A DNA stretch of 64,000 bases from a virus. Made by a program: the position numbers and the translations under genes. The notes below the pieces were generated by a model, which did not search any database, had not been told where the DNA came from, and saw only the letters and a list, made by a program, of their open reading frames with translations. Below are positions 4,490-62,283 of the stretch, piece after piece; the first letter of the stretch is position 1, and every line of letters begins with the position of its first letter. Location: the UHGV virus genome UHGV-1366640. One strand, 5' to 3'.

Positions 4490-4502
4490 GAGTGATGTAT
4501 AG

Positions 4503-4919
4503 ATGAAAAATATCGTTAAGATGATTTTTGTTAAGTCTGACGAAGATCAATCATTTGGAATCTATACAAGTTCAGTAGATTTGGGGAGAGTGGGAGATTC
4601 AAATGCATCTCAACTCTCTTTTCCAAATGTTGTTTCTGAGATCTATGAAAATGGATATAATCTTACATTAACATTTCTTCCTGTTGGTGTTGTCAATGCT
4701 AATCCTCTCACATATACATTCCTCAATGCAGATAATAAGACAGTATTTGATATTCCTTCTGAATTGACAAAATACCAATCTTATGATTGTCAGGCAAGAA
4801 TTTCAGATTCATCTGGTCAGGTTTGTCTTTCAAATAAGATCAGGTTCTATCTCACGCAATCTCTCATAACAAAATCTATCACAGATACTCCAGGATCTCC
4901 TGGAGATCTTCTTATATAA
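4503..4919 (+). CDS. hypothetical protein
   Basis: 138-aa ORF. Confidence 0.4.
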   Translation: MKNIVKMIFVKSDEDQSFGIYTSSVDLGRVGDSNASQLSFPNVVSEIYENGYNLTLTFLPVGVVNANPLTYTFLNADNKTVFDIPSELTKYQSYDCQARISDSSGQVCLSNKIRFYLTQSLITKSITDTPGSPGDLLI

Positions 4920-4933
4920 GGAGTTGGTATAAT

Positions 4934-7279
4934 TTGGAGATATTGAGTCTCACTGTTATTAAGGATCAAATACGATTGAATAGATCTCTCGTTGGTACAA
5001 CTCCAGAATTGTATACAGGAAATACATCGTATACATTGAGTGTTTCTTTTTCTGAGGATTGGGTATCAAGGACAGTCCTTGCTGTTTTCATAAAAGGGTC
5101 AACTGCATATCAAGTTGATGTTGGTACTGTGGCTGATGCTGGAGAAGTCATTAGAAATGTTCTTATACCGTCAGAAGTTCTTACAGATGCTGATAACACG
5201 ATCTCTTTCGGATTCTATTCAGTCATGGAGGGGACTTCTCGATTAAGTACAGAACTTGGAACATTCTCTGTAGTTGATGGTGCATACCGAGATGGAACAA
5301 CACCGACTCCTCCTGCTCCTGACATCTGGGAGCAACTTGTTCAGAAAGCAGTTCCAATGATTGATCCAACAACCACAAATTGGATGATCTGGGACATGAA
5401 TCTTGGAAAGTATGTTGATACTGGATTTCCTTCAAGAAGTGAGAAGGGAGATAGTGGTGTTGGTTTTACAAATCTCATAGAGCAGGGGACAAATTATAAG
5501 ATTTGTGATCCATCAAGCACAGTTCTTCAATCTGCAGAATATTCAGTCACATTGGGGCATAATTGTACTGTTCTTACATTCTCTTGTTTTGCTTCTGGTG
5601 ATGGATGTGTTGCAGGTAAGAGAGCTTTTAAGATTACAGCGATGCCTTCTACTACATCTTTTACGCTTGATTCAGTTGATGGATTAGCTGTTGGGGATGT
5701 TGTTTCATATTCTAATATTTTCTCAGGTTCAGGTACAGCTTCTGCTGTTTGGAGAGAGAGCCAAGATCTTTCAAAGATTACCGCAATCTCTAATACAACA
5801 ATAACATTGGATTCTGATATTTATTCACTTACTCCTACAGATGTTAATAATTTTCAATCAAGTACAGATCGTATTGCTTGCCGACTTTGGGTAAATGCAA
5901 AACCTGAAATTGGTACATATGATTTATCTACTAAAGCAAATGCAAGAGGTAGAGGGTGTAAAGCTCTTGGAGATGGGTCTGATGTTGGTGGAAAAGATAA
6001 TGTTGTAACTTCTCCATATGGTGCTGCTGTTAATTCAAGTAATAGAGTTGATGCAGAGAGTGGTTTTGGTTTTGGTTCAGGTAATACTCTTGGTTGGAAA
6101 GCTGCAAGATCTGCTGTTGGTGGAAATAAATGTGTGAATAATTCGTATGCTTCTCTTATTGGTGGTAATGGTTCAGAGTCTCCAGCAGGAATTCGTCAGG
6201 TTTTTGGTTGGGGAGAGCATCTTGAATTTTCAAACGATAGTGAAGCTGCTGTGGGAGCATATAATAAGACAAAATCTAACCTTAGATTTTCTGTTGGTAA
6301 TGGTTCAGATGAATCTCATCGTTCAAATGCCCTTGAAGTCTATAAAGACGGTACAGTCATTATTCCAAAGAGTTTCCAGCAGGTCGCATATGTCAATTCT
6401 CCTCAGAATACAAGTGGCTGGTATAAATTTGCTCATTATAATTTTTCAACTTATAAATCTGGATCTCTTCTCCTCGATGTTTGTCAGGGATATGCTGGTG
6501 ATAAATTCAACTCATTATTTGAGTTGGAAATAACAACAGATGATACGGGATTTCATCCACAGGATGGTTTCGTTTTTAGACAGATTGCTGGTCAAGACAT
6601 TACAGATCGAATTTGTTATTATATAGATACAGCAACTCATGATGTAGATTTCTATATAAGGAAAACTCGGTATGATTATATCTTCTTTACAAAACTTGCA
6701 GATACTTTTGGAGATCTTATAACCTATTTTACAAATGTTGGTCCTGAGACTCTTGATAGTAGCATTACAAGTGTTAATCCAGGAAATGATTTTCTTGTAA
6801 CGAAGAGTTTTGTAAATTCTTCATTGAATAATTATTATAACAAGACTGCTGTCGATTCCTTATTGTCTTCAAAATCTGATAAAACTGCTATTGTTTTCAT
6901 ACAGAATGCTTCTTCTATTTCATTTGAATTAGGAAGTAACAGTGACAATAAGGAATTCAGAATTGTTGATAATGTGTCATCTCCAACTGTTCTTTCACAG
7001 ATTGGAACTGCTACGATCAATGTTTCTATTATGAATGGAAGTTTCAATAATGATTATATCACAGGATTGACATTCAGAACAGCTGCTACTGGAACGATTA
7101 CGATGTCTTATACTGGTACAGGAATTCTCCAATGGGTTGGAACTGATTGTGATGTACAAGATGGTTACAGTGTTTTCACTCCACAGAATAGCATGACTTA
7201 TGATATTGTGTTCTATTTCAATGGTGCAAGATTTGTTGGACTTGTTAATGGTTATGAAGAACTGAATGTTGAAAAATAA
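4934..7279 (+). CDS. tail fibre-like or host-specificity-like protein
   Basis: 781 aa; Gly/Ser/Asn-rich segments (GSGNTLGWKAARSAVGGNKC...), typical of phage fibre or adhesin proteins. Confidence 0.4.
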   Translation: MEILSLTVIKDQIRLNRSLVGTTPELYTGNTSYTLSVSFSEDWVSRTVLAVFIKGSTAYQVDVGTVADAGEVIRNVLIPSEVLTDADNTISFGFYSVMEGTSRLSTELGTFSVVDGAYRDGTTPTPPAPDIWEQLVQKAVPMIDPTTTNWMIWDMNLGKYVDTGFPSRSEKGDSGVGFTNLIEQGTNYKICDPSSTVLQSAEYSVTLGHNCTVLTFSCFASGDGCVAGKRAFKITAMPSTTSFTLDSVDGLAVGDVVSYSNIFSGSGTASAVWRESQDLSKITAISNTTITLDSDIYSLTPTDVNNFQSSTDRIACRLWVNAKPEIGTYDLSTKANARGRGCKALGDGSDVGGKDNVVTSPYGAAVNSSNRVDAESGFGFGSGNTLGWKAARSAVGGNKCVNNSYASLIGGNGSESPAGIRQVFGWGEHLEFSNDSEAAVGAYNKTKSNLRFSVGNGSDESHRSNALEVYKDGTVIIPKSFQQVAYVNSPQNTSGWYKFAHYNFSTYKSGSLLLDVCQGYAGDKFNSLFELEITTDDTGFHPQDGFVFRQIAGQDITDRICYYIDTATHDVDFYIRKTRYDYIFFTKLADTFGDLITYFTNVGPETLDSSITSVNPGNDFLVTKSFVNSSLNNYYNKTAVDSLLSSKSDKTAIVFIQNASSISFELGSNSDNKEFRIVDNVSSPTVLSQIGTATINVSIMNGSFNNDYITGLTFRTAATGTITMSYTGTGILQWVGTDCDVQDGYSVFTPQNSMTYDIVFYFNGARFVGLVNGYEELNVEK

Positions 7280-7573
7280 TTGTTAGGAGGAGATTTCATG
7301 TTATACAAATATATTGGTGAACATTGTGTTGAGAAGTTTAATGGAGATTTTGTTGTGGTGGATAATGTGGTTTATACAAATCCTCAGGAAGAACATCTTA
7401 AAATGGCTGGTTATAAAGAATTAAAATCAGCAGAAATCCCAGAATATAATCCTGAGTCACAGTATGTAGAGATGACTTACAAAGATGGTAAGAATTCTAT
7501 AACAGAGATATGTGAAATAAAAGATTTTCCAGATTTATTCATCACAGAAGAGGATCAGTCAAAGGAGGAGTAG
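7280..7573 (+). CDS. hypothetical protein
   Basis: 97-aa ORF with strong SD (AGGAGGAG). Confidence 0.4.
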   Translation: MLGGDFMLYKYIGEHCVEKFNGDFVVVDNVVYTNPQEEHLKMAGYKELKSAEIPEYNPESQYVEMTYKDGKNSITEICEIKDFPDLFITEEDQSKEE

Positions 7574-7574
7574 T

Positions 7575-9572
7575 ATGAACTACCTCGAAAAGAAGAAAAG
7601 AGCAATAATGGCTGTACTTCAGAGGGTTTATTCAGTAATTGGAGTCCCTCCAATAACCTTGCTGAAGTCTCTTGGGAAAAGTCTTAAAGATTATCTCATT
7701 TATGGCAATACTTCTCAGAATGGGACTCCCTCTCCTGCTTCTCCTGTCGAAATTGAAAGTGTCGGCACAAAAACAAATAATCTTTGGGATAAAGGAAATA
7801 CGATAATTTCTGATAATGAAACTCGTTCTTGTTATTTTGGTTTTGATGCATCTTCATATGATTGGATTCAGCCAAATAGAGTGTATTATGTGAGTGAAGA
7901 ACTTGTTCTCTACGAAGATGATACTCGAATTATTCATGGTCAGACAACACCAACAACAAGATTGACTATTCAGATTCTTTATGAGGATGGTACAAATGAT
8001 ATAACTGGTTCTGCAGTTGTATTCAATGATGGTTTGTTTCATAAGGTGTCAGTTTCAATTACTGCTAAAGATAAGCCAATTACGAGAATTGCTATTAGAC
8101 TTGCAGATTACAGCTCAAATTCAGGCGGTGTTTTTCATGGAGAAGCAAGGAATGTTATGCTTACAGCATTTAACTCTGCTGGTCTCTCAATCACACAGAA
8201 ATCCATAAATAATGCAACTGTTATTTCTGATGAAAATAATGTGTATCATGTAAAAGGAAATGACGGACTTAGTGCTTCAGCGTTTTCTGCAGGACAAGTT
8301 AATGTTGGTTTTTCACCTATTTTAACCAAAAACAGACAATTCAATGTAAGCTTCTATGCAACTCGTGTTAGTGATGGAGTTTGGACGAACAGTAGTAGTT
8401 TAGTCTGCCAGCTATTTGTTCAAGATACTAACTATTTTACACAAAATTTCTATGAGTACTCAAAATTTCCTATTGGAGAAAGAGTGCTTATATCATCTAA
8501 GGTGTTTTCAATCACAGAAAGTACTGAGATTTCAAAAGTTGTATTTAGATTAAATGCGATGGAGTGGAAAATTGAAACAGATTCTTTCAGAATAAATTAT
8601 ATCGACGAAAATGACTTGGAATATAAACCTTATGGCTATGAAATCCCAGTTTTATCACACTATCAAGAGAACCTGATTCCATATCCATATGTCACAGCTG
8701 ATCGGGTGATTTCAGGAGTTAAGATCCAGACAACAGGAAATAACTGTATTCATCTTAAAGGAACAGCAACAGGAAATGTGACTTTTGTATTAGCGAATCC
8801 AATCTTGCTAACAGCAGGAGATTATATTTTCTATGTTAGACGTACATCTCAAGATTTTCTTATTGACAGATTTAAATGTGGTGTCTTTCTGAGACAGGTT
8901 GGCACTGCTGTGTATTATAACGCAGTCATAGAAGATCAGTCTATTACTTTGACATCAAGTGACAATTGGTATGTTTACATTACTGTTGCAAGTGGTGTGA
9001 CAGTTGATACAATTTTGAATGTCTATCTTGAGAGAGGAACCAAATTTCCCGAGACAACAAATATCTATCTCAACGAACCATTGAGAAAGATTGGTGATTT
9101 CGTTGATTATATTGATTTTAAGAATCAAAAAGTTGTCAGGAAGATTAAGCGACTTGACTCTGCTAATATAGATTTGAGTCTTTGGAAAGACGATAGTCCA
9201 TTGTCTGGTGGTTCTGAGAATTCCATGAAGTGGGTAAATATTTCTGAAGCTGCGTTTGATGATCTGGATGCTGTTTCTTGTATATGTAACAAGTTTGAAG
9301 GGTTTTCCGACACAGGTTTATCATATGGAGCAATCGGGATGTCAGTTTATCAACATCGTTTAAGGATCTATTATCCTGGAGTAACTGATGACACTCTTGA
9401 TAATTGGAAAACATGGGTTACAGATAATCCTTTCACTCTTAATTATGTTTTAGAAACTCCAACAGAACAGTCAGTTTTTCTCCCTGAAGTCTTAACTGTA
9501 AAAGGCACTTGTGTTTTAGATACAAGAGGGATGTATCCATCAAATATGAATGTAAAATATCTTGGAAAATAG
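7575..9572 (+). CDS. fibre or receptor-binding-like protein
   Basis: 665 aa, beta-rich and Asn/Thr-rich composition. Confidence 0.35.
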   Translation: MNYLEKKKRAIMAVLQRVYSVIGVPPITLLKSLGKSLKDYLIYGNTSQNGTPSPASPVEIESVGTKTNNLWDKGNTIISDNETRSCYFGFDASSYDWIQPNRVYYVSEELVLYEDDTRIIHGQTTPTTRLTIQILYEDGTNDITGSAVVFNDGLFHKVSVSITAKDKPITRIAIRLADYSSNSGGVFHGEARNVMLTAFNSAGLSITQKSINNATVISDENNVYHVKGNDGLSASAFSAGQVNVGFSPILTKNRQFNVSFYATRVSDGVWTNSSSLVCQLFVQDTNYFTQNFYEYSKFPIGERVLISSKVFSITESTEISKVVFRLNAMEWKIETDSFRINYIDENDLEYKPYGYEIPVLSHYQENLIPYPYVTADRVISGVKIQTTGNNCIHLKGTATGNVTFVLANPILLTAGDYIFYVRRTSQDFLIDRFKCGVFLRQVGTAVYYNAVIEDQSITLTSSDNWYVYITVASGVTVDTILNVYLERGTKFPETTNIYLNEPLRKIGDFVDYIDFKNQKVVRKIKRLDSANIDLSLWKDDSPLSGGSENSMKWVNISEAAFDDLDAVSCICNKFEGFSDTGLSYGAIGMSVYQHRLRIYYPGVTDDTLDNWKTWVTDNPFTLNYVLETPTEQSVFLPEVLTVKGTCVLDTRGMYPSNMNVKYLGK

Positions 9573-10226: not shown

Positions 10227-10243
10227 TGAATTACCCTCTGAGA

Positions 10244-10333
10244 AGCCTTCAGAGCTTCTCAGATTAAAGAAGTGAGTCAGGGTAGTATAACTATACCCCT
10301 ACTCACTTTCTTTCAATACAAAGCCTTGTAGAT
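10244..10333. repeat. structured intergenic repeat, copy A (two stem-loops)
   Basis: Hairpin CTGAGAAGC/GCTTCTCAG (10246-10270), then a long imperfect stem ATTAAAGAAGTGAGTCAGGGTA ... TACCCCTACTCACTTTCTTTCAAT with loop GTATAACTA. Homologous copies at 34468-34586 and 47938-48056. Confidence 0.7.
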
Positions 10334-10350
10334 AATCCTATGAAAGGAGA

Positions 10351-10765: not shown

Positions 10766-10810
10766 TTAAGAGTTTTCTATATGTATACACCGTTTATAGT
10801 AGTATAAAAT
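10766..10810 (+). promoter_or_regulatory. phage promoter-like bipartite motif (AAGAGTTT-N15-CGTTTATAG)
   Basis: Same architecture as motifs at 34636, 52786, 56965, 59111 and 62190. The block AAACCGTTAAATTTAAGAGTTT is nearly identical to 34624-34646. Confidence 0.45.
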
Positions 10811-16089: not shown

Positions 16090-17414
16090 TGAAAAACAAG
16101 TAGCTTAATTCACAATGAATTAAGAATCCCTCAGTGAACTCAGGGAAACTCCTAAAGCTCAATCTACCAAAGTCATACAGTGATGTGTGACTGGATGATC
16201 TAATCAATCATGTATGGTAACAAGGGTTGAGATGTTACAATGGACAATCCTGATCCAAGTCACTCTTTTGTCAGAGTGAAAGGAGCAACGACTATTAAGT
16301 AGAGCCAAATGGTACGGCAGTCTTGGAGAGCGTAAGTCCGTTTAATTCGAAGTGCTGATAATCATATGATATAGTCTGGTCTATCCAATACTTAATTGGT
16401 ACTGTTAGAGTTGTCAGTAGTCGAAAGACATAGATTGAATTAGTGAATTCTTATTTCCCAACATCCTCACATTGAAGGAGGTGAATGTAGTGTTAAAATA
16501 TCAGTGTCAACTGTGTGACAGATCTACTTTTAAGAACTGGAGAGATTTTGTTACACATTTACGACGACACAAGATCCGTAAGAAAGAGTATTTTGAGAGA
16601 TTTCCGTATATCTATCCAGAACCAGTTGGTGTTTATGGAGTTGACTATGTGACTTGTCCGATTTGTAATGATAATCGTGAATTTCAAAGTTTGACTCAAC
16701 ATTTGATAAATAAACATAAGATCTTAACTGAAGAGTTCTTAGTCAAGTTTCCAGGAAAGAAACTTTTCACAGAAAAGTATTCTAAGATGCGAGCTGATTT
16801 TTGTAGAAAAGGCTTGACAAAGAATTGGGCGGATCCTGAATATCGTAAAAAGAGATCAGAATACTGTTCAGAATTTTTCAGTAAAATTAATTCTGGCAGT
16901 AAGAGACCTGTTCAATCTGAAACAATGAAGAAGACTTTGAAACGATTGTGGAAAGATGAAGAATATTGTAAGAAGCAATCTGAACGAATGAAAGAAAGAC
17001 ACAAATCTGGGGAGCTTGAAAGACAAGTTCTTAATGGTTTCGGGAAGAAATGGATCAAGCATGAAACTTGGTATGGAAAGATAGCAACTCTTAAAAGTTC
17101 TTACGAAGTCTATGTTGCTAAATTTCTTGATGAAAATAAGATCATGTATGAATACGAAAAGATGTATGAGTATCATGACTCTTATTCAGACAGGGATAGA
17201 AAATATTATGCAGATTTCTATCTTCCAGATTATAATATTGTATTAGAAGTCAAAGCTTCTTGGGCAATAGATCGTTATCAAGTTCTAAGAGATAAGATGC
17301 TTGCAGTTTTAGAAACTGGTACACGATATAAATATGTCACTGAACGAGATTTGGGAAAACTCGTCAGCTTGAAAGAATTCGAAATGCTAATTCAGAGTAA
17401 CAATAACGAATGAG
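16090..17414 (+). mobile_element. group I self-splicing intron with embedded homing endonuclease ORF
   Basis: Core elements visible: P2 hairpin CUUAAUUCA-CAA-UGAAUUAAG (16104-16124); P4 CUCAGGGAAACUCC; GUAUGGUAACAAGG; GGACAAUCCUGAUCC; R-like AACGACUAUUAAGUAGAGCC; S-like GAUAUAGUCUGG. Proposed P1 pairs exon CUAU(16086-16089) with IGS AGUAG(16099-16103), including a U16089-G16100 wobble. G17414 would be the omega G. The splice is in-frame. Confidence 0.7.
16472..17413 (+). CDS. intron-encoded homing endonuclease: 2x C2H2 zinc finger + NUMOD-like repeats + PD-(D/E)XK nuclease
   Basis: Two C2H2 fingers (CQLCDRSTFKNWRDFVTHLRRH; CPICNDNREFQSLTQHLINKH). Lys/Arg-rich NUMOD3-like repeats (SETMKKTLKRLWKDEEYCKK...). 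C-terminal ADFYLPDYNIVLEVK is a PD-x6-E-V-K nuclease motif. The true start may be GTG 16490 after SD AAGGAGG. Confidence 0.55.
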   Translation: MKEVNVVLKYQCQLCDRSTFKNWRDFVTHLRRHKIRKKEYFERFPYIYPEPVGVYGVDYVTCPICNDNREFQSLTQHLINKHKILTEEFLVKFPGKKLFTEKYSKMRADFCRKGLTKNWADPEYRKKRSEYCSEFFSKINSGSKRPVQSETMKKTLKRLWKDEEYCKKQSERMKERHKSGELERQVLNGFGKKWIKHETWYGKIATLKSSYEVYVAKFLDENKIMYEYEKMYEYHDSYSDRDRKYYADFYLPDYNIVLEVKASWAIDRYQVLRDKMLAVLETGTRYKYVTERDLGKLVSLKEFEMLIQSNNNE

Positions 17415-17529
17415 TACACAACTTCTTATGGACGAAACCTTCACAGGTCGTCAAGGTTATTCGACCAGCTATGCAAAGAAGATGACAGCGTCAGACTTCT
17501 ATGCAACCAATACTATTACACATTCCTAA
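17415..17529 (+). CDS. major capsid protein, exon 2 (37 codons, unannotated)
   Basis: After the proposed splice, codon AT|T is restored (Ile) and the reading continues TQLLMDETFTGRQGYSTSYAKKMTASDFYATNTITHS to TAA 17527-17529. Too short to appear in the ORF track. Confidence 0.5.
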
Positions 17530-17740
17530 TTTTTGATTAGAGATTCTTTGAGATTCATGGAAGAGAGTTCTTATGTGTGATCATTTACCTCTCCGAAAAA
17601 GGTTTTGCTTTGTTTTCATGTGTAATTCTCTCCTTTGAATATATTTGTTAATACATTGTTTGCTACCTCCAAAATATAATATTACATTCACACAAGAAGC
17701 TTTCCATGGATCTCTTAGTGATCTCTCTGAAAGGATTGAT

Positions 17741-34467: not shown

Positions 34468-34586
34468 TAAAGAGGTCATAAGACCTCTTCTCGCACGCTG
34501 AGAGCCCCTCTAATTAAAGAAGTGAGTCAGGGTAGTATAATTATACCCTTACTCACTTTCTTTTAATACAGGGCTTCTGAGAGCTT
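34468..34586. repeat. structured intergenic repeat, copy B
   Basis: AGAGGTC-ATAA-GACCTCT hairpin, then AATTAAAGAAGTGAGTCAGGGTAGTATAATTATACCCTTACTCACTTTCTTTTAAT (~22-bp stem), flanked by GCTGAGAGC direct repeats. Confidence 0.7.
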
Positions 34587-34623
34587 CACAGACTTTTAGA
34601 GATTCTTAAGATCTGTATAGATT

Positions 34624-34680
34624 AAACCTTAAATTTAAGAGTTTCATAAAGATGTGAAGCGTTTATACCTATAGAGTTAT
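34624..34680 (+). promoter_or_regulatory. phage promoter-like bipartite motif (AAGAGTTT-N15-GCGTTTATAC)
   Basis: Same spacing and sequence class as the other GCGTTTATA sites; sits upstream of the baseplate operon. Confidence 0.45.
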
Positions 34681-46752: not shown

Positions 46753-46808
46753 CGAAAAGTTAGCAAAACGGCGAAAAACGGCGTATTTATGCGATATATT
46801 TAGAAAAC

Positions 46809-46853
46809 AATAGCTGATTTACCTTAGATTAGGGTAGATCAGCTATTTTAAGG
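46809..46853 (+). terminator. hairpin AATAGCTGAT...ATCAGCTATT followed by TTTTAAGG
   Basis: 10-bp perfect stem, 19-nt loop, T-run; sits after the endolysin gene. Confidence 0.45.
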
Positions 46854-46864
46854 TTTTATCAAAC

Positions 46865-46893
46865 TTTACATTTGACTCTAAAAGTAGTATAAT
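46865..46893 (+). promoter_or_regulatory. sigma-A type promoter TTTACA-N17-TATAAT
   Basis: Counted by hand: -35 TTTACA 46865-46870, 17-nt spacer, -10 TATAAT 46888-46893. Lies upstream of the sigma-factor gene. Confidence 0.5.
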
Positions 46894-46963: not shown

Positions 46964-47608
46964 ATGAACATTTCATTTGAGAACATGGTAAATGTACTTG
47001 AGGATGCAAGAAAATCAGACAAGCTGTTAGAAAACTATGAAATATCAAAGTATGATAACATCTTAAGAGGTGTTGCTAAGAAATACGGAAAAACATTTTG
47101 TTGTGATGAAGATGAAATTTATTCTGAACTTTGTTTGAAGATCCTGAAGCTTGGTCGTGCCAATGGTTGGGAAAATCTTAATTCTAATTTGGTAGCGAAA
47201 ATCGCTTATAATCGTGCAGTAGATATTTATCGTAAAAATCGAAGAGAGTGGGATAGAAATCATACAGTATCTTCTATAGATGAAGTTGATCCTAATTCAA
47301 TTAATTCTTCACTCTATTCCAAACTCGGTAATTCATCAGAAGCTGATATCTCAGTTCTGTGTTCACAAATACTTGAAAGATATCCTCGTGGTTCAAGAGA
47401 GGAAATGTATCTTATAATCAAGCTTGTAGATAATGGAGTTCTCCCTGAGTCTGTTGCAGTTGCTCGAGGTATTCAAATGCCTGAAAAGGTTACAAATGAA
47501 TCTATAGCTCGATTGATGGGGTTCAAATCAAAAGCTCCTGCATCATTCTGTGGAATGATACATAACTTGAGAAATGAACTGTATGAAATGATGTACAAAG
47601 AAGTCTAA
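46964..47608 (+). CDS. phage-encoded ECF-like sigma factor
   Basis: Region 2-like LVAKIAYNRAVDIYRKNRRE (ECF consensus L..IA.N.a.D.lR..rr); C-terminal HTH-like ESIARLMGF...NLRNEL. Confidence 0.5.
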   Translation: MNISFENMVNVLEDARKSDKLLENYEISKYDNILRGVAKKYGKTFCCDEDEIYSELCLKILKLGRANGWENLNSNLVAKIAYNRAVDIYRKNRREWDRNHTVSSIDEVDPNSINSSLYSKLGNSSEADISVLCSQILERYPRGSREEMYLIIKLVDNGVLPESVAVARGIQMPEKVTNESIARLMGFKSKAPASFCGMIHNLRNELYEMMYKEV

Positions 47609-47643
47609 TAAATTATCTTATTTGAAAGGATTTAGTGATCATT

Positions 47644-47883
47644 ATGAAATTAATATTAAAAATTGTTACATTCATCAGTTTTCTTATTCTTATTGGCAGA
47701 GGTGGATATGCTGATCTTGGTTTGTCTAATACAGCTCATCTCATTGGTACTCTTAAAATTATTTTCATTCTCATAGGATGTCTTATTGGTCTCTTTATGA
47801 TCCATGTTAAGGAACTTCATCGTAAAGAACAGCGTGAAAGAGATACAGCTGTACTTGAAGCTTGGATCAAGTCATTTCAATAA
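47644..47883 (+). CDS. holin candidate
   Basis: ~80 aa, two hydrophobic helices and a highly charged C-terminus (KELHRKEQRERD). Confidence 0.4.
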   Translation: MKLILKIVTFISFLILIGRGGYADLGLSNTAHLIGTLKIIFILIGCLIGLFMIHVKELHRKEQRERDTAVLEAWIKSFQ

Positions 47884-47895
47884 AATTCTTAGTAA

Positions 47896-47930
47896 AGAGT
47901 TCTCCATTTCGGAGAGCTCTTTTACTTTAT
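47896..47930 (+). terminator. rho-independent terminator AGAGTTCTCC-ATTTC-GGAGAGCTCT-TTTT
   Basis: 9/10 bp stem followed by a T-tract. Confidence 0.5.
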
Positions 47931-47937
47931 AAAACTT

Positions 47938-48056
47938 ATGAGACCTCTCAAGACCTCTTCTCGAGCGTTCAGCGACTCTCAGATTAAAGAAAGACCCTCA
48001 GGTAGTATAAGTATACCTTTTAGTCACTTTTTAGTTTACAGCGCTTCTGAGAGCCT
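47938..48056. repeat. structured intergenic repeat, copy C (degenerate)
   Basis: Homologous to copy B across ~115 nt: GACCTCTTCTCG ... CAGATTAAAGAA ... GGTAGTATAAGTATACC ... CTTCTGAGAGC. Stem complementarity is partly lost. Confidence 0.6.
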
Positions 48057-48165
48057 TCTGCTGATCTACCATCAAATTCAGAAGATTCTAAGAGTGATCT
48101 CCACCATCACAGAAAATATTTTCATAAAATTTTTATAAATTTTTGGAGTCGTCCTGAGAATCTCA

Positions 48166-48183
48166 GCGTTTATATTTGGGGAA
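48166..48183 (+). promoter_or_regulatory. GCGTTTATATTTGG promoter-like motif upstream of the topoisomerase operon
   Basis: Matches the -10-like half of the recurring motif. Confidence 0.35.
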
Positions 48184-48290
48184 GGGGTAAAGGACTATCA
48201 TCCCGCAGCTGAAACAGTTGAAACAATGAAGAGTTGAAACAAACAAAACAAACAGCAAACAATGAAGAAAGGAGATCAGTAGAAAACAAA

Positions 48291-51200
48291 ATGTCAAACA
48301 AAACAAACAATGAAGAATATACAGTTGATTCAATTCAGGTACTTGATGACATTCAACACATCAGATTGAGAAAGGGAATGTACATAGGAGAAACATATGA
48401 TCCTCATCATCTCTTTTCAGAAGCATTTGATAATGCAATAGATGAAGCTCAATCTGGAAACAGTGATCTTACAATTATTAAGAAATTCAAAGATGAGAAC
48501 GGAAAATTACATTATTATGTGAGAGATCATGGTAGAGGAATTCCTATTGGCAAGATTCTCTATGGAGAGAAAGAAGTGGAAGCTCTTCAGATTCTCTTTA
48601 CAAAATGTAATTCAGGAGCGAAGTTCAGTTCTGACAATTATAGAATCTGTTCTGGAACTCATGGAGTTGGTGGTGTCTGTATCTGTGCTCTCTCAGAATG
48701 GATGAGAGTAACAACAATCAGAGATCACAGATCTGTTTCATTGGTCACAGAATTTGGAGAAGTAAAAGATCTCGTTTATTCAGATACAGATGAAGAAAAT
48801 GGAGTTGAAATTGAGTTCATACCAGATCCTTCTGAATTTGAATCTTCTGAGATCCCAGATTCCTTTATCATTGACAGATGTGAAGTTGCTCAGGCAATGG
48901 GATATCCAGTAGATCTTTTTATCAATGATAAGAAGATTGAAATTAAGATAAATTCTCTCTTGGATTTAATACATCTTCAACCAGATGTCACGGAATACTG
49001 TTCAGATGTGATCAAAGTCAAAGATGAATCAACAGGAGAATCTTTCATTGTAGGATTCAAATATACATCAGATACAAAATACAGAATCAATGGATATACG
49101 AATCTCCTTTATAATTCATATGGAGGAACTCATACAAGATGTACAATAGATGCTGTCACACAAGCTTGGTCAAAATATACAGAGGAGAGATCTCTTGTAT
49201 GGGATGATTGTCTTCTTGGAATGAAGATTGTTGTAGCAGCATTTATAGATAATATTGCTTTTTCATCACAGACGAAAGATAAGTTGACTGTGCCGAAATC
49301 TCAATTGAAAACATTGACAGATCTTCTCTCACTCAAATTTGAAGAGTGGATAGAGTCACATAAAGATCTCTGTACAAAATTGCTTGATAGATTTTCAGAG
49401 TATCGAGCAGCTCAAAGAAAATTGGAATCTCAAAAGGAGATTATGAATGTTGTACAGATCTCAAAGAAAGATAAGAGTGGTCGTCTTCGCAGAGGAAGTT
49501 CTGTTGTGTCATCGTTGATTGATTGTACTTCTCCTTCAAAAGAGGATACTGAGTTGTATATCTGTTTGGCAGGAGATACGAAAATCAAAATGCTCGATGG
49601 TACTTCTCCGACATTAGAAGAATTGACTGAAAGATATAAGGATCCTGATGAGGAATTTTGGGTGTATTCTTGTGATGATTCTGGAGAGTTCATTCCTGCA
49701 AAGGCTCATAATCCTCGACTGACAAGATATGTAGATGAGTTGTATGAGATTTCTCTGTCAGATGGTACAATTGTGAAATGTACAGGAAATCATAAATTTA
49801 TGAATAGAGAAACGATGGACTGGATAAGAACAGATGAAATGACAGTTGGTACATCATTACATCATCTAAGTTTTGGAAAAACTGCAGATGGTAGATGTAC
49901 GGTTTTTGTGAATAAAGATTCTTCATATAAAGAAGAGCCTGTTTACCGAATTATTGGTAATCTATTCTATAAAGAAGAGCATGATAGACTATTTAATAGA
50001 TTTCGGAGAACTGGCGATGTATTAGATCGTCCTCAGCTTCATCATAAGAATTGCAACAAATTTGATGATCGTCCTGAGAATATAGAATGTATTACTCAAC
50101 GAGAGCATTGGGATGGGTACAGGCACGGATCGTTAAGTAGCCAAAGGATTACTGATTACAATAGATCAGATTCTCATAAAAGAGATATGAAAATTGCATG
50201 GAGCAATCCTGAATTACGAAAAAGGATGTCAGTTGGAGGAAAGCATACTGATCTTTCTAAGCAGAAATTACATGATCTTGCAGTAGATCCGAATTCTCGG
50301 GTATGTGCAAAAACATGGTCAGAGACTTACAATAACTCTGAGAAACATCATATTGACTTAATTACAAGATTTGAAAGATTTCCGAATCTAAAAGAGAAGT
50401 ATTCTCAAAGAACTTCCGAGATGAATAAGAACCCTCAGATTAAGAGAAATCAGATGAGAGGAAGAATTGGTAAAATAATGAGAGCACTATTTGATAGAGG
50501 ATTGGAATTTTCTGAAGAGTCCTGGAATTTGGTAAATTCTCAGCTTCATCATTCAAGTGTTAAGTACTCAACAATTCTAAAATATTTTGATTCTTACGAA
50601 GAAGCATGTAAATTTGGTCAGAATTGGAATTATAAAGTTGTTTCTATCAAACGAATTTCCTCTCCTCATACTCCTGTATATTGTATGACAGTAGATTCGA
50701 CTCACAGATTTGCTTTAGAGAACGGACTTATCAGCAAAAATTGTGAGGGGTTGTCGGCTTCGGGTTCTATAGCAAGACCTCGCAATAAGGAATTTCAGGC
50801 AGTTCTTCCTCTTCGTGGAAAGATAAAGAATATTGCAGGATATTCTCTCAAAGATGCTTTGAAGTTTGAAACAGTTGCGAATATTGTTAATTCAATTGGA
50901 TGTGGTATCGGAGAATCAGCTGATCCAGAGAAGTCAAGATATGAGAAGATTATTATCTCTGCCGACAAGGATTCAGATGGATCGCATATAGTAGCTCTTG
51001 TTCTTACAGCAATTGTGAATCTCCTTCCATCAATCGTCAAGGCAGGAATGGTTTATATCTTAGATGCTCCTTTCTATAAGTATTGGACAAAAGATGGAAA
51101 ACATCACTATACAAGTGATTTCAATGAGGTTCCTCAGTGGAGTTTTGATAATCACAAGTTTCTCAGATTCAAGGGTCTTGGTTCTATGGATGATTCAGAC

Positions 51201-51386
51201 TTCAAAGATGCTTGTCTGAATGCTGAGAATAGAGTTTTATTTCAAGTTGAATATCCTGATGATCTTGAGAGATTCAATCATCTTGCTGGTACATCTGCTG
51301 GTAGGAATGAATTGTTATCACACTATGGTGTCATAAGATCAATATCAGATTTAGAAGAGGATGAATCTGTAGATGAAGACTCCTAA
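48291..51386 (+). CDS. type II topoisomerase large (GyrB/gp39-like ATPase+TOPRIM) subunit, containing an intein
   Basis: ATPase motif GTHGVGGVCICALSEW. TOPRIM extein ...TELYI|(intein)|CEGLSASGS...EFQAVLPLRGKIKNI matches GyrB ELYLVEGDSAGGS...KFQAILPLRGKILNV. ATG 48291 is the likely start; the track gives TTG 48234. Confidence 0.7.
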   Translation: MSNKTNNEEYTVDSIQVLDDIQHIRLRKGMYIGETYDPHHLFSEAFDNAIDEAQSGNSDLTIIKKFKDENGKLHYYVRDHGRGIPIGKILYGEKEVEALQILFTKCNSGAKFSSDNYRICSGTHGVGGVCICALSEWMRVTTIRDHRSVSLVTEFGEVKDLVYSDTDEENGVEIEFIPDPSEFESSEIPDSFIIDRCEVAQAMGYPVDLFINDKKIEIKINSLLDLIHLQPDVTEYCSDVIKVKDESTGESFIVGFKYTSDTKYRINGYTNLLYNSYGGTHTRCTIDAVTQAWSKYTEERSLVWDDCLLGMKIVVAAFIDNIAFSSQTKDKLTVPKSQLKTLTDLLSLKFEEWIESHKDLCTKLLDRFSEYRAAQRKLESQKEIMNVVQISKKDKSGRLRRGSSVVSSLIDCTSPSKEDTELYICLAGDTKIKMLDGTSPTLEELTERYKDPDEEFWVYSCDDSGEFIPAKAHNPRLTRYVDELYEISLSDGTIVKCTGNHKFMNRETMDWIRTDEMTVGTSLHHLSFGKTADGRCTVFVNKDSSYKEEPVYRIIGNLFYKEEHDRLFNRFRRTGDVLDRPQLHHKNCNKFDDRPENIECITQREHWDGYRHGSLSSQRITDYNRSDSHKRDMKIAWSNPELRKRMSVGGKHTDLSKQKLHDLAVDPNSRVCAKTWSETYNNSEKHHIDLITRFERFPNLKEKYSQRTSEMNKNPQIKRNQMRGRIGKIMRALFDRGLEFSEESWNLVNSQLHHSSVKYSTILKYFDSYEEACKFGQNWNYKVVSIKRISSPHTPVYCMTVDSTHRFALENGLISKNCEGLSASGSIARPRNKEFQAVLPLRGKIKNIAGYSLKDALKFETVANIVNSIGCGIGESADPEKSRYEKIIISADKDSDGSHIVALVLTAIVNLLPSIVKAGMVYILDAPFYKYWTKDGKHHYTSDFNEVPQWSFDNHKFLRFKGLGSMDDSDFKDACLNAENRVLFQVEYPDDLERFNHLAGTSAGRNELLSHYGVIRSISDLEEDESVDEDS
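49563..50741 (+). other. intein (393 aa) with HNH endonuclease domain
   Basis: N-terminal CLAGDTKIKMLDG (Hint block A), internal HNH LHHKNCNKFDDRPENIECITQREH, C-terminal VYCMTVDSTHRFALENGLISKN followed by +1 Cys. Removing it restores a colinear GyrB TOPRIM motif. Confidence 0.7.
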
Positions 51387-51742: not shown

Positions 51743-52801
51743 ATGCAGAATCGACGAAATGATATACCATATCTTGGGTGCAACAATATTGAGGGCATTA
51801 AGAATCCAAAAGATCCTGGAATATTGCAAGATAGATTAGAAATTTTATACCATTTTATCACAGAAAGATATAAGATTTGGTTAAGAAGAAATGCTGGTCA
51901 AAAGAGACCTTGGACTGATGATGAAATTCTTAGAGATTTCAGTTTTACGAATATCCGAAGAGAACAAGACAGGACAAGTCGCTGGCTGATAGAGCATATT
52001 TCGGAGAATGATGATCTATCAATTGCTGAGAAATTTTGGCAGACCATTATTTTTAGATTATATAATAAGATAGAGACAGCTGAATTGTTCAAACTTGGTT
52101 CGGGTTTTGACTGGGATTTTGAGAGAATTGAAGAAGCAAGATCTAAATCTGACATGAGATATTTATTTACAACAGCGTACTTTACATCAGGTTGCAGAGC
52201 AGCTTGGAATAGGAGATATCCAGATATTTCAAGATCATCACATCTTTCTACTCTTAAAGGAATCATTGATTATAGAAACGATTTTGATTATTCTGGTTTT
52301 GATTCTCCTATTAGATACCTTGATGACAAATACTACTGGAATGAAGATCTTCATGCAGATGATGTTGTTAATTGGCTTCTCAAAATTCCAGGATGTAAGT
52401 GGTTTATGGCTTATCAGTTATTCGTAGATCTTACATACATTCCATCTTTTCCAATTTCTGAGAATGAATATGTTGTTGCTGGTTCAGGATGCAGAACTGG
52501 TATCTGGTATTTGACTGAAACTTCAAAGTGGAAAGAAAATATGGTAGGAGATCTTAAATACTGGGAGTTTCTCTTTTGGTTAAGAGATCATCTTGAAGAT
52601 CTCTTCAGAGAGAGAGTTGATCCTAATTTCTCCTGTGATAAATTGTTTATAGATCTTCCATCAGAAGAAAGACATTTTAATGTTATGAGTCTTGAAAATG
52701 TCTTCTGTGAATTTTCAAAGTACATGAAATTGAAAGAAATGAAAGAAACAGGAAAGAAATGTCGAATAAGAAAATATTATGGTTCTGAGAGTATTCTATA
52801 A
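51743..52801 (+). CDS. hypothetical protein (352 aa) within the topoisomerase cluster
   Basis: Conserved-looking block KRPWTDDEILRDFSFTNIRREQDRTSRWL; no family assigned with confidence. Confidence 0.4.
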   Translation: MQNRRNDIPYLGCNNIEGIKNPKDPGILQDRLEILYHFITERYKIWLRRNAGQKRPWTDDEILRDFSFTNIRREQDRTSRWLIEHISENDDLSIAEKFWQTIIFRLYNKIETAELFKLGSGFDWDFERIEEARSKSDMRYLFTTAYFTSGCRAAWNRRYPDISRSSHLSTLKGIIDYRNDFDYSGFDSPIRYLDDKYYWNEDLHADDVVNWLLKIPGCKWFMAYQLFVDLTYIPSFPISENEYVVAGSGCRTGIWYLTETSKWKENMVGDLKYWEFLFWLRDHLEDLFRERVDPNFSCDKLFIDLPSEERHFNVMSLENVFCEFSKYMKLKEMKETGKKCRIRKYYGSESIL

Positions 52802-52826
52802 ATTTAGAGCGTTTATATTTGTGTAA
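52786..52826 (+). promoter_or_regulatory. bipartite promoter-like motif TGAGAGTA-N15-GCGTTTATATTTGTGTAA
   Basis: Hand alignment with the sites at 56965, 59111 and 62190. Confidence 0.45.
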
Positions 52827-52849
52827 TGAATCGTTAGGAGTTGATGTAA

Positions 52850-56964: not shown

Positions 56965-57005
56965 TGAGAGTTTTCAAAATCTTTTTAGCGTTTATACTTG
57001 TGTAA
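56965..57005 (+). promoter_or_regulatory. bipartite promoter-like motif TGAGAGTT-N15-GCGTTTATACTTGTGTAA
   Basis: Hand alignment. Confidence 0.45.
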
Positions 57006-57052
57006 GAAAGGTTAGTTTCCAAATTTTATTAATGTTAAGGAGATTTTGTAAG

Positions 57053-57595: not shown

Positions 57596-59113
57596 ATGAT
57601 ACAATTTGTTAATGGGAATAAAATAAAGATACCAAGAGATTATTCATCTATAGCATTAATAAAATACCGACTCACAAGAGTAGATCGCAGAACAGATCAA
57701 GTACAATGTGCGTATACACGAGATAAGAAGACAGAAGATATTTTCATTCATCGGGGAATGTTAAATATTTTCTTAAAGATGGGATTGATTAGATCCGAAG
57801 ATATTGATTGGATTTCAGATAAGAATAATCTTTGGAATTTTTCTAAACCATGCTATCCAGAAGACTTCTGGGACACGCTTCTTCCAAATATTAAGTTAAG
57901 ACCTGAACAGATTCTTGCTATTGTAAGATGTCTTGAATCCAAAAGAGGGTTGATTCAAGCAGCAACTGGAATGGGTAAGAGTATAATTATTTGTGCTCTT
58001 GTGAAGGCACTTGAGAGAATATTGGGAGAACTTCCGCCAATTTTGATTCTTGTACCAACAAGATATCTCGTTGAAGATATGGTTTCAAAAATGAACGGAT
58101 TTGGAATTCCAGCAGTTGATTATGCCGATTGTAGAGGAGATGTTTCTGGGGTTGTAGTCTGTCATCCAAAATCTATTTGTAACGATCTTGATTGTGAAAA
58201 GATAGATCTATCTGATGTTAAAATAATTATCAGTGATGAAGCTCATCATCTTCAATCACAAACATTCAGTCGAGTTTTTGAAGCTGCTGAAAATTCTGAA
58301 ATTGTTCTTGGGTTTTCAGCTTCAATGATAGATTCCTTTAAGTTACCAATTGAAACACATCTTGATAGATTAACAATTGATGAATTAAGAATGGTTTCTG
58401 TTACAGGGCAGATTTTATTAAATGTTCCAACTTCCTTTTACGCAGATGGAGATGTTCTTGCAAAATCTTGTGTTATTAGAATTTACCACAAGATAGAGGA
58501 GCCAGTAGATGATTTAAGAAATTGGCATCAATTGAGATCTATCCAATTAGAATCACAGGCTCGAACTCTTAAGATGGCACAAGTTGCAGCAATATTTTCA
58601 AAATTTGGTCTTAAGACATTGATTCTTGTAAATACACATGATCATGGATATCGCCTTCTTAAGATGCTATCAGATTATGGTCTCCGAGAGATATCTGCAT
58701 GTTCTTATGGAAGTTCGAAATTCTATCAGTATGATGAAGAAGGAACTCTTGTTCAACTTCCAAAGGATTCTATGGAAAAATTCAAAACAGGAGAATTGAA
58801 AATCTTAATTGGATCAAGTCATATTTATGAAGGTGTTGATATTCCCAATCTCGATTCAGTCATTATGGGAGTTGTTGGGAAGAGCTCAAGGAGAATTATT
58901 CAGGGTGTTGGTCGTTCTTTAAGAAGAACAAAGAATGGTAAATTCGCTTATATTGTAGATTTTACAGACAATGACAACGGAATTCTTGGATATCATTCTT
59001 CAAAGAGATCTCATATTTATAAAGAGATTATTGGTGTTTCTGAAGAGAACTACAAAGATGGCGTTAAGATTTCAGAATTACAAGATCTTCTTATGAAAAT
59101 TGAGAAAAATTGA
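57596..59113 (+). CDS. SF2 DEAH-box helicase (UvsW/RecG-like)
   Basis: Walker A TGMGKS; motif II IISDEAHHL; motif VI-like GVGRSLRR. Confidence 0.55.
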   Translation: MIQFVNGNKIKIPRDYSSIALIKYRLTRVDRRTDQVQCAYTRDKKTEDIFIHRGMLNIFLKMGLIRSEDIDWISDKNNLWNFSKPCYPEDFWDTLLPNIKLRPEQILAIVRCLESKRGLIQAATGMGKSIIICALVKALERILGELPPILILVPTRYLVEDMVSKMNGFGIPAVDYADCRGDVSGVVVCHPKSICNDLDCEKIDLSDVKIIISDEAHHLQSQTFSRVFEAAENSEIVLGFSASMIDSFKLPIETHLDRLTIDELRMVSVTGQILLNVPTSFYADGDVLAKSCVIRIYHKIEEPVDDLRNWHQLRSIQLESQARTLKMAQVAAIFSKFGLKTLILVNTHDHGYRLLKMLSDYGLREISACSYGSSKFYQYDEEGTLVQLPKDSMEKFKTGELKILIGSSHIYEGVDIPNLDSVIMGVVGKSSRRIIQGVGRSLRRTKNGKFAYIVDFTDNDNGILGYHSSKRSHIYKEIIGVSEENYKDGVKISELQDLLMKIEKN

Positions 59114-59150
59114 GAGTTTTGTACTTGTTATGAGCATTTATATTGTTGAA
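59111..59150 (+). promoter_or_regulatory. bipartite promoter-like motif TGAGAGTT-N15-GCATTTATATTGTTGAA
   Basis: The TGA of the motif is the helicase stop codon. Confidence 0.4.
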
Positions 59151-59183
59151 TGAAATACTACGCATTAGAAGGGGATATTCATA

Positions 59184-61460: not shown

Positions 61461-62192
61461 ATGAAGGCAGCATATCTATTCGTTGACCCAGAAATATCAG
61501 TAATGATATTGAAAGGAAAATTAAAAAATTGTAATGATGAGCATGTACTCAATCATCAAATAGATTTATACTTGAGATATCTTGCATATGATAAAATTTT
61601 TATTTCAATCCCAGAGAGTTGTTTATATTTGGTAAGAGAACAATTATCACAAGAGGATCATAAATTCGTGGAGGTATTTTCATATTCTGAGGAGCAGTCA
61701 CCTTTCTATAATTTAATGAGACTGCCTAATGAGATAAGTCTGCTAACAGTGATGGATCTGTCTTTGATAATAAAGCCTGAATCATTGAGAGCATATTGTC
61801 AAAGTATCGACTCTGGAGAGAGAGCTCTTATCGAGAGGATTTCTGAGGAACAGATTACAGAGTTTTCTTCATCAATTTTAATGTCACTTCATCCAACATT
61901 TGAAGGATATCAATTGTCAAGAAATTTTGGATTTGAGATATTAGATCATCCTCATACAGAGGAACTCTTGTTTAACATTATTCCAATATTGTCTCTTTCA
62001 GAGGAGAGAATTGATTATTATAAACAGCTCAAGTATCGAGAAAGAGAATTATTCGCTTATCAGATTTTTGACATGATTTCTACAATCTCTAATTGTGCAA
62101 TGATTGAGTATGATGCTAATGGTTCGATATATTTCAAAATATCAAATTTGTCAGATTTTTGGAAAATTTCAAAAGATTATCTAACAAAATGA
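61461..62192 (+). CDS. hypothetical protein (gp59-like helicase loader by position)
   Basis: ATG 61461 after GAAAGGAGC. Sits between the primase and the gp32-like SSB, as gene 59 does in T4. Confidence 0.3.
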   Translation: MKAAYLFVDPEISVMILKGKLKNCNDEHVLNHQIDLYLRYLAYDKIFISIPESCLYLVREQLSQEDHKFVEVFSYSEEQSPFYNLMRLPNEISLLTVMDLSLIIKPESLRAYCQSIDSGERALIERISEEQITEFSSSILMSLHPTFEGYQLSRNFGFEILDHPHTEELLFNIIPILSLSEERIDYYKQLKYRERELFAYQIFDMISTISNCAMIEYDANGSIYFKISNLSDFWKISKDYLTK

Positions 62193-62230
62193 GAGTTCTT
62201 TGAATAGATGTAGCGTTTATATTTATGTAA
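62190..62230 (+). promoter_or_regulatory. bipartite promoter-like motif TGAGAGTT-N15-GCGTTTATATTTATGTAA
   Basis: The TGA of the motif is the stop codon of the upstream gene. Confidence 0.45.
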
Positions 62231-62283
62231 GGAACCGTTGATGGTTCAGATAAAATTATTTAATTCTACTTGGAGGTTTTAGT

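Follow-up and report, generated by a model that had tools for sequence, protein, structure and literature searches.

Which promoters would a phage that carries its own small sigma factor have it read, and how would that factor itself come to be made? The question is raised by the gene at 46964-47608 (plus strand) of the virus genome UHGV-1366640, within a stretch of 64,000 nucleotides that we call the window. The window is 64 kb of a longer phage genome, and all motif counts given for it refer to the window only. An earlier note on this DNA, made from the letters alone, had proposed that the gene encodes a sigma factor resembling those of the extracytoplasmic function (ECF) group, and that a recurring two-part motif is its promoter. 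We find seven copies of this motif, and we put at roughly two in three the probability that they are phage-specific promoters, used by the host core RNA polymerase together with a highly divergent sigma factor that the phage encodes, of ECF type (group 4-like) and from the same family as the product of the open reading frame (ORF) at 46964-47608. Three observations carry this proposal: the statistics of the motif, the homology of the protein to the sigma-2 domain, and the conservation of both the architecture and the position of the motif across phages.

The motif TGAGAGTT-N15-GCGTTTATA has seven matches with at most three mismatches, starting at positions 10767, 34636, 48143, 52786, 56965, 59111 and 62190, all on the plus strand. 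Chance expectation, taken from dinucleotide-preserving shuffles, is 0.24, and none of 100 shuffles reaches seven. The octamer CGTTTATA occurs six times in the 64 kb, always on the plus strand and always within a copy of the motif; the seventh copy carries CATTTATA. Scored with a position-weight matrix of the core columns, the seven sites reach 32-45 bits, and no other site in the window exceeds 12 bits. Spacing is identical in all seven copies, the -35 four-mer ending exactly 17 nt before the CGT each time. The core can be written as GAGAGTT-N16-CGTTTATA, with the -10 element extending to CGTTTATAnTnnTG. The seven or more occurrences and the constant spacing that had been claimed from the sequence are borne out by these counts. 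What had been taken for a partial copy at 48166 is in fact the -10 half of a full-length copy beginning at 48143, whose -35 half, TTGGAGTC, is degenerate. A pattern match at 3173 (GAGT-N-CGTTTAGG) was considered as a further copy and dropped, lying inside a gene and scoring below 12 bits. Exact-motif matches in five IMG/VR contigs, which have no blastn or tblastx similarity to the window, were set aside as chance.

All seven copies lie in, or at the edge of, intergenic gaps, 30-115 nt 5' of the Shine-Dalgarno sequence and start codon of plus-strand genes. Their orientation is that of the genes, and hairpins of the terminator type stand 5' of three of them. The copy at 10767-10808 (TAAGAGTT-N15-CCGTTTATA) precedes the portal gene, and that at 34636-34677 (TAAGAGTT-N15-GCGTTTATA) precedes the baseplate and tail operon that follows the tape-measure gene. 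The degenerate copy at 48143-48184 stands 5' of the gene for the large subunit of topoisomerase II, and the copy at 52786-52827 stands 5' of a small ORF and the gene for the second topoisomerase II subunit. Two copies have the perfect consensus: that at 56965-57006, 5' of the ORF at 57032 and a helicase operon, and that at 62190-62231, 5' of SSB-like and recombinase genes. Between them, at 59111-59152, the copy with the -10 CATTTATA precedes DnaB-like helicase and primase genes. The TGA of the motif had been said to serve as the stop codon of the upstream gene in three cases. It does so in two, ending the preceding helicase gene at 59111 and the preceding ORF at 62190. At 52786 the motif overlaps the 3' end of a 5-hydroxymethyldeoxyuridine (5-hmdU) DNA kinase gene, which spans the -35 and stops at 52801 in another frame.

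Motifs of the same build recur in related phages. The Bacillus cereus phage vB_BceM-HSE3 (HSE3; 124 kb) has 31 sites in which the -35 GGCTCT is followed by N16-CGTTTATA. Listeria phage LIS04 (182 kb) has about 50, with the -35 GCTCT(ATT) followed by N16-CGTTTATA (about 32) or N16-CGTCTATA (about 20), and Bacillus phage SP-15 has several per 20 kb, with a GCTnnATT-type -35 and the -10 CGT(T/C)TATA. Among the other lineages, L008, whose sigma factor is 45% identical to that of the window, has four GGCGAAA-N16-CGTTTATA sites in 10.7 kb; L014 and L026 have one site each, with GGAGTT and GAGCT respectively before N16-CGTTTATA; and L027 has three sites of the form CAGACAA-N16-CGTTTCTAA. The -35 four-mer ends 17 nt before the CGT, in the same register as in the window, at 31 of 31 sites in HSE3 and at 43 of 48 in LIS04. 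The architecture common to these phages is a lineage-specific -35, a 16-nt spacer, CGT(T/C)TATA and nTnnTG, and a downstream nTnnTG(T)AA is also common to the window, HSE3 and LIS04. Motif and sigma family occur together in eight of nine lineages. The earlier note had asked whether the motif is absent from homologous phages with a conserved sigma factor; it is present in HSE3, LIS04, SP-15 and four of the five metagenomic lineages with enough flanking DNA.

Position is conserved as well as form. In HSE3 the octamer CGTTTATA occurs 33 times on the plus strand and twice on the minus strand; nearly all sites lie 5' of genes, and the 54-kb structural module has none. In LIS04 the copies on the minus strand stand 5' of minus-strand genes. 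The same four orthologous genes lie behind promoters of this type in the window, HSE3 and LIS04, with proteins only 30-40% identical: the topoisomerase II large subunit, the second topoisomerase subunit, a homologue of LIS04_102/gp112, and a homologue of gp120/LIS04_107. The window copy at 48143 corresponds to sites at HSE3 90860 and LIS04 87271, that at 52786 to HSE3 95821 and LIS04 89975, that at 56965 to HSE3 99737 and LIS04 93818, and that at 62190 to HSE3 107179 and LIS04 99942. The -35 differs between lineages (GAGAGTT, GGCTCT, GGCGAAA, CAGACAA), and the -10 and the spacing are kept, a combination that fits a phage-encoded ECF-like sigma factor. A GCTC-type -35 is common to HSE3, LIS04 and SP-15, phages of B. 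cereus, Listeria and B. subtilis respectively. The same -35 in phages of different hosts argues against a host factor as its reader, although this distribution also follows phylogeny.

The candidate reader is a protein of 214 amino acids with an ATG start. The ORF stands as the earlier note gave it, and by its matches to SigX, TIGR02937 and Sigma70_r2 the product is a member of the sigma-70 family with an ECF-like build, its sigma-2 domain (about residues 26-105) recognisable by sequence and, after a linker (about 106-123), its sigma-4-like helical domain (about 124-213) predicted. Taken alone, the protein has no Pfam match. Its PHROG is phrog_37530, 'unknown function', and its match to the sigma PHROG 1740 is weak (E 0.14); the NCBIfam SigX model, however, matches residues 27-111 (E 1.3e-4). 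A HMMER search of 1.8 billion representative proteins gave 42 relatives, 39 of which were scanned singly for domains. TIGR02937 (sigma70-ECF, NCBIfam) matches 25 of the 39, with a best E of 2.9e-8, and Pfam Sigma70_r2 matches 16 at E <= 0.01 and 21 at E <= 1. These sigma-model scores are far below all curated family cut-offs, and by sequence the family is within the sigma-70 family yet outside every curated subfamily. Signatures of both region 2 and region 4 had been claimed for the protein. The first is confirmed by sequence models; the second is supported by predicted structure only, as Pfam Sigma70_r4 or a region-4 model matches none of the 39 members.

AlphaFold2, run with the family alignment, predicts two helical domains (about 26-105 and 124-213) with some 18 disordered residues as a linker between them, at a mean predicted local distance difference test (pLDDT) score of 84.7; folding without the alignment gave an unusable model (pLDDT 44). 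A Foldseek search of the PDB placed ECF sigma factors on top, below significance (best E >= 0.35), and the family profile against PDB sequences gave only marginal matches to RpoD, CnrH and ECF factors (E 0.3-2.7). The small size and two-domain build fit a group 4 (ECF) sigma factor, which lacks regions 1.1 and 3. A tblastn search of 50,697 phage records with the protein (E <= 0.01) matched SP-15, HSE3 and LIS04 only. Searches of viral contigs with the protein or its alignment added nothing new but SP-15, and searches of metagenome contigs added three short ones. The homologues HSE3 gp103 and LIS04_95 are annotated in GenBank as sigma-70 family sigma factors, and HSE3 Gp01 and Gp103 have been named as divergent phage sigma factors missed by the filters of an ECF re-classification (PMC7826278). 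Across the family, mean identity is 35% in sigma-2, rising to 41% in the segment resembling region 2.4, against 27% in the C-terminal helix-turn-helix. The better conservation of sigma-2 parallels the conserved -10 and the variable -35. The recognition-helix consensus SGSYRxLKK is common to the sigma factors of the B. cereus, Listeria and B. subtilis phages with the GCTC-type -35, and the other lineages are without it.

The sigma gene forms part of an insulated two-gene unit made up of a terminator, the host-type promoter TTTACA-N17-TATAAT, the sigma gene, a small ORF and a second terminator. The first terminator-like hairpin, followed by a U-run, lies after the endolysin gene at 46815-46845 (plus strand; -13.1 kcal/mol, z -2.8) and would isolate the operon from upstream transcription. 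The predicted sigma-A-type promoter at 46865-46893 (plus strand), which the earlier note had recognised, is present, agrees with consensus at 11 of 12 positions and stands 70 nt 5' of the ATG. No sigma-70-like match in 45-64 kb scores higher, and the only two that equal it at 11 of 12, one antisense and one inside a gene, do not stand 5' of a plus-strand gene. It is the sole match with at most one mismatch in an intergenic gap 5' of a plus-strand gene. We estimate the chance of such a match, in the right orientation within the 211-nt gap, at about 1 in 100. The promoter is identical in a 95%-identical relative (L007), and the L008 contig starts with TATAAT at the equivalent place. In L021 the sigma gene is preceded by TGGACA-N17-GATAAT, itself preceded by TG, and LIS04_95 has two tandem TTGCTT-N17-CATAAT repeats, read by eye from the sequence. 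The small ORF downstream of the sigma gene, at 47635-47883 (plus strand), belongs to the same predicted operon and encodes 82 amino acids with two hydrophobic segments, which are probably membrane-spanning. It has no Pfam or PHROG match and no homologue in HSE3 or LIS04, and that it might be an anti-sigma factor is speculation by analogy with its position in ECF operons. An intrinsic terminator with a 12-bp stem closes the operon at 47894-47922 (plus strand; -19.3 kcal/mol, z -7.0). The order endolysin/holin, sigma, small ORF, topoisomerase II is common to the window and to the HSE3 gp103 and LIS04_95 loci. The endolysin gene itself lies directly before the sigma gene in the window and in HSE3, and elsewhere in LIS04.

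We infer three things: the motif acts as a promoter, its reader is a phage sigma factor, and that factor is the product of 46964-47608 rather than a paralogue encoded outside the window. After infection, the host sigma-A holoenzyme would transcribe the terminator-insulated sigma operon from TTTACA-N17-TATAAT, and the new sigma factor would then join the host core polymerase. Its conserved sigma-2 domain would recognise the -10, CGTTTA(TA), and its fast-evolving C-terminal helix-turn-helix would recognise the lineage-specific -35, here GAGAGTT, exactly 16 nt away. Transcription would start about 7 nt 3' of the -10, within the conserved TnnTG(T)AA. The replication and recombination operons (topoisomerase II, helicases, primase, SSB-like protein, recombinase) would thereby be switched on, together with two operons of the structural module (portal, baseplate). 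A phage sigma factor is the likely reader because near-consensus sites, a CGT -10, a rigid spacer and a T-tract after the -35 are the design of B. subtilis ECF promoters (PMC5758882). A phage cascade is supported because the sigma gene alone in the window has a well-placed, near-consensus promoter of the host type.

Several observations weigh against this proposal. In the few intergenic regions of L024, an 8.5-kb contig with a sigma homologue, the motif is not clearly present. The sigma genes of LIS04, HSE3, SP-15 and L027 have a variant of the phage motif 5' of them, and so the order in which a host promoter comes first is not general; these variants imply autoregulation or control by the paralogue. 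The -35 GAGAGTT lacks the AAC of ECF promoters. The ECF likeness that had been claimed for the motif therefore holds for the CGT of the -10 and the rigid 16-nt spacer and fails for the -35 (GAGTT). The difference in conservation between the two domains, and the grouping of recognition helices by -35 type, both follow phylogeny and are no independent proof. Two further points, the paralogues of the related phages and the resemblance of TATAnT within the motif to a sigma-A -10 hexamer, each open the way to an alternative explanation.

The first of these alternatives, which we consider unlikely, is that a second member of the family, encoded outside the window, reads the motif, and that the sigma factor of the window reads another class of promoter, for example late structural ones. 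LIS04, SP-15 and HSE3 have two paralogues each, and a second one could be the reader here too. In LIS04 the two -10 subclasses, which share a -35, lie in different regions, CGTTTATA mainly in the replication region (87-150 kb) and CGTCTATA mainly in regions of small genes (0-28 and 135-181 kb), as would suit two readers. This split at the fourth base of the -10, CGTT against CGTC, resembles the CGTA and CGTC classes between which B. subtilis ECF sigma factors discriminate (PMC5758882). Most of the structural (late) module is without the motif in the window, HSE3 and LIS04, which means that another promoter class must exist and that the cascade probably has a further step. K-mer enrichment and inspection revealed no convincing second (late) promoter class in the three structural modules, only scattered A/T-rich stretches resembling TATAAATA. 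Against a second reader, the window holds a single member of the family in 64 kb, albeit in what is only part of the genome. The LIS04 paralogues are 42% identical and pair with each other in a rough neighbour-joining tree, and the duplication may thus be lineage-specific. Moreover, the sigma factor of the window is the syntenic counterpart of the copy that heads the motif-rich replication region, and its gene lies behind a host-type promoter, as would be expected where a cascade begins. The self-contained cascade of the earlier note is partly supported: the sigma genes of several relatives have motif variants 5' of them, and most of the structural module is without the motif.

The second paralogue of HSE3 calls for a separate remark. 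The left end of the HSE3 GenBank record contains an inverted duplication, in which positions 2-88 mirror 65-150 and by which the sigma paralogue gp001 is truncated. The published 'sigma-2 only' Gp01 may be an assembly artefact. We had considered the 'sigma-2 only' state of gp001 as an argument for gp103 as the sole reader of bipartite promoters, and dropped it, the truncation being an artefact of the inverted-repeat assembly.

A second alternative, to which we give little credence, is that host sigma-A uses the TATAnT in CGTTTATAnT as its -10, with a phage activator bound at the upstream box in the manner of T4 MotA/AsiA, and that the ORF at 46964-47608 is unrelated. The window, HSE3 and LIS04 all keep TATAnT, whose A (position 2) and T (position 6) meet the key positions of the sigma-A hexamer. 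By its portal, capsid and tail genes the phage is distantly related to T4, and variation of the upstream box from lineage to lineage is what an activator site could show. This arrangement would, however, leave the invariant CGTT before TATA without a role. The upstream box ends 20 nt before TATAnT, and no TTGACA-like hexamer is found at the 17-nt distance. MotA and AsiA are not annotated in HSE3 or LIS04, and the small ORFs of the window were scanned for them only in part. A conserved ECF-like sigma factor would also be left without targets, while the type of target expected of it dominates every related genome.

Nor do we find it at all probable that the motif is no promoter but the site of some other DNA-binding protein, be it a repressor at an operator or a replication or packaging signal. 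Many LIS04 copies do form a palindrome, TAAACGTTTA, as such a site might, but the window copies (AGCGTTTATA) do not. A non-promoter site would also have to account for the strict agreement with gene direction (seven plus and no minus copies in the window, 33 and two in HSE3, and minus copies before minus-strand genes in LIS04), for two parts held at a fixed 16-nt spacing, for the constant distance to start codons, and for the terminators just upstream. Finally, reading by a host ECF sigma factor that envelope stress induces on infection (sigma-W-like, with promoters of the TGAAAC-N16-CGTATA type) is least credible of all. Host ECF promoters do have a closely similar CGT -10 and 16-nt spacer (PMC5758882), but the -35 of the motif lacks AAC, B. 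cereus, Listeria and B. subtilis phages have a GCTC-type -35 in common and related phages differ in theirs, and motif and phage sigma family go together in eight of the nine lineages counted above.

A phage-encoded sigma factor acting on host core polymerase, the reading we prefer, can be set beside several known systems. The promoters of the B. subtilis ECF factors sigma-W, -X, -M and -V have AAC at -35, CGT at -10, a 14-17 bp spacer and a T-tract after the -35, and are near consensus (PMC5758882). Like bacterial ECF sigma factors, the phage protein is a two-domain protein of about 200 amino acids with a homologous sigma-2 (SigX, TIGR02937), its candidate promoters are bipartite and near-consensus with a CGT -10, a rigid 16-nt spacer and a T-tract after the -35, and in relatives the motif type of the sigma factor stands 5' of its own gene, as in ECF autoregulation. 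Unlike them, it is phage-encoded, has no Pfam region 4, scores below curated cut-offs and has no recognisable anti-sigma factor. Its -35 is GAGAGTT, GCTCT, GGCGAAA or CAGACAA rather than AAC, its -10 extends to CGTTTATAnTnnTG, and in this phage its gene lies behind a host-type promoter instead of its own motif.

Phage precedents are equally instructive. In the SPO1 cascade, early host-type promoters drive the sigma gene, gp28 serves the middle promoters (AGGAGA-N17-18-TTTnTTT) and gp33/34 the late ones (CGTTAGA-N18-GATATT), all on DNA containing hydroxymethyluracil. The phage of the window resembles SPO1 as a lytic Firmicutes myovirus that would put its own sigma factor, made from an early host-type promoter, on host core in place of sigma-A, and in its bipartite candidate promoters and its modified thymine, the latter predicted here from a 5-hmdU kinase gene. 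It differs in that the consensus sequences and the virion and replication modules are unrelated, and no homology to SPO1 gp28 or gp34 was found by tblastn against the 50,697 phage records (E <= 0.01). Phages of the phiEco32/7-11 group reportedly use an ECF-like sigma factor, gp36, with phage-specific middle and late promoters. The likeness lies in a phage ECF-like sigma factor that redirects host core to a recurring motif, findable by a genome-wide motif search; the differences lie in the Gram-negative host, the podovirus virion, the unrelated sigma sequence and the other consensus. T4 late transcription uses gp55, gp33 and the sliding clamp, with TATAAATA at -10; gp55 is without sigma-4, and there is no -35. 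By its gp20-type portal and T4-type prohead protease the phage falls within the broader T4-like structural lineage, but here the promoter is bipartite, a C-terminal domain is predicted and the motif stands mainly before replication genes, not late ones. Identity as a late sigma factor of the gp55 type was considered and does not fit the predicted C-terminal domain and the bipartite, fixed-spacer motif.

All genes of the window lie on the plus strand, and its G+C content is about 35%. By megablast the region matched no phage record, and no near-identical phage is on record. The portal protein is of the T4 gp20 type, with best matches in Listeria phage LIS04, Bacillus phage SP-15 (Thornevirus), vB_BceM-HSE3 and a Streptococcus phage, and the prohead protease is also T4-type. 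Judged by these and its other genes, the phage is a large, distant T4-like myovirus of a Gram-positive host, kin to HSE3, SP-15 and LIS04. Local tblastn shows collinearity with HSE3 and LIS04 at 25-41% protein identity, running from portal, prohead protease, capsid, sheath, tube, hub, tape measure and baseplate on through sigma, topoisomerase II, helicases, primase, SSB-like protein and recombinase. No terminase gene is evident 5' of the portal gene in the window, unlike in the relatives. Three large ORFs (647, 781 and 665 amino acids) occupy 2546-9572, 5' of the portal region, with no Pfam or PHROG match and no homologue in HSE3 or LIS04; a phage RNA polymerase is not recognisable among them, Pfam and PHROG giving no match either way.

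The 5-hmdU DNA kinase gene lies at 51743-52801 (PF18723, HMUDK_hel, E 5e-53; phrog_2396), inside a motif-driven operon. SP-15 is known for hypermodified thymidine in its DNA, and the DNA of the present phage, judging from this kinase gene, probably carries hypermodified thymidine too. In that event T-rich promoter elements would be modified in vivo.

Other features of the window and its relatives deserve record. An intergenic repeat of about 110 nt occurs three times (10227-10350, 34470-34600 and 47940-48060), each copy 100-500 nt 5' of a phage-type promoter. Its invariant core, ATTAAAGAA...GGTAGTATAAnTATACC, forms a long hairpin followed by TTTCTTT. The hairpins lie on the plus strand at 10263-10317 (-19.9 kcal/mol, z -3.7), 5' of a holin-like gene and the promoter at 10767; at 34506-34573 (-27.6 kcal/mol, z -5.1), between the tape-measure gene and the promoter at 34636; and, in a degenerate third copy, at 47981-48037 (-12.7 kcal/mol, with a weak z of -1.3), between the sigma operon and the promoter at 48143. 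The repeat is probably a terminator, and its invariant loop suggests a further role. Directly after the endolysin stop, at 46769-46800, the sequence GGCGAAAAACGGCGTATTTATG resembles the L008 -35 word GGCGAAA, with a degenerate -10, CGTATTTA, at the wrong spacing; to judge by these remnants it may be a decayed promoter. In HSE3 a full copy of the motif on the minus strand at 89518, between the holin and sigma genes, points into the lysis genes, and from its placement could be an antisense promoter that delays lysis.

Two further regions look like insertions. The ORF for the large topoisomerase II subunit (48234-51386) encodes 1050 amino acids, compared with about 640 in HSE3 and LIS04, and its insert, which runs from CLAGDTKI to LISKN and is followed by C, looks in sequence like an intein with an endonuclease-like middle. 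In the interval 16109-17644, just behind the major capsid gene, an ORF stands alone at 16472-17413, with 363 nt of non-coding sequence on one side and 231 nt on the other; it is similar to the HSE3 endonuclease gp130. The layout looks like that of an intron or a homing-endonuclease insertion. Rfam has no match anywhere in the window, and no intron model matches at 16109-17644.

Phage sigma cascades are classic, and the principle proposed here is conventional and unsurprising. A full-text literature search, using the octamer with 'phage' and the names of the relatives, found no description of the promoter. What is new is a candidate cognate promoter for a sigma family that neither Pfam nor PHROGs recognise and that was left out of the ECF classification (PMC7826278). 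The promoter is defined by comparative genomics alone, in poorly studied large phages of Firmicutes: SP-15 (Thornevirus), HSE3, LIS04 and their metagenomic relatives. For annotating these genomes, the motif provides a map of transcription units. The series of lineages, in which one -10 and one 16-nt spacer are combined with at least four -35 words, offers a test case for the evolution of sigma-4 specificity and possibly a set of orthogonal sigma/promoter pairs for synthetic biology in Gram-positive bacteria.

The finding also raises the question of how promoters are recognised on hypermodified DNA. We speculate, while thinking it improbable, that the sigma family reads the T-rich -10 (CGTTTATA) only in its modified form, that the -35 serves as a 'bar code' of the lineage, and that paralogues divide early from middle genes by CGTC and CGTT, as in LIS04. 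If the -35 were such a bar code, related phages would be insulated from each other. If the -10 were read only when modified, these phages would possess a promoter code that is closed to host sigma factors and silent on host DNA.

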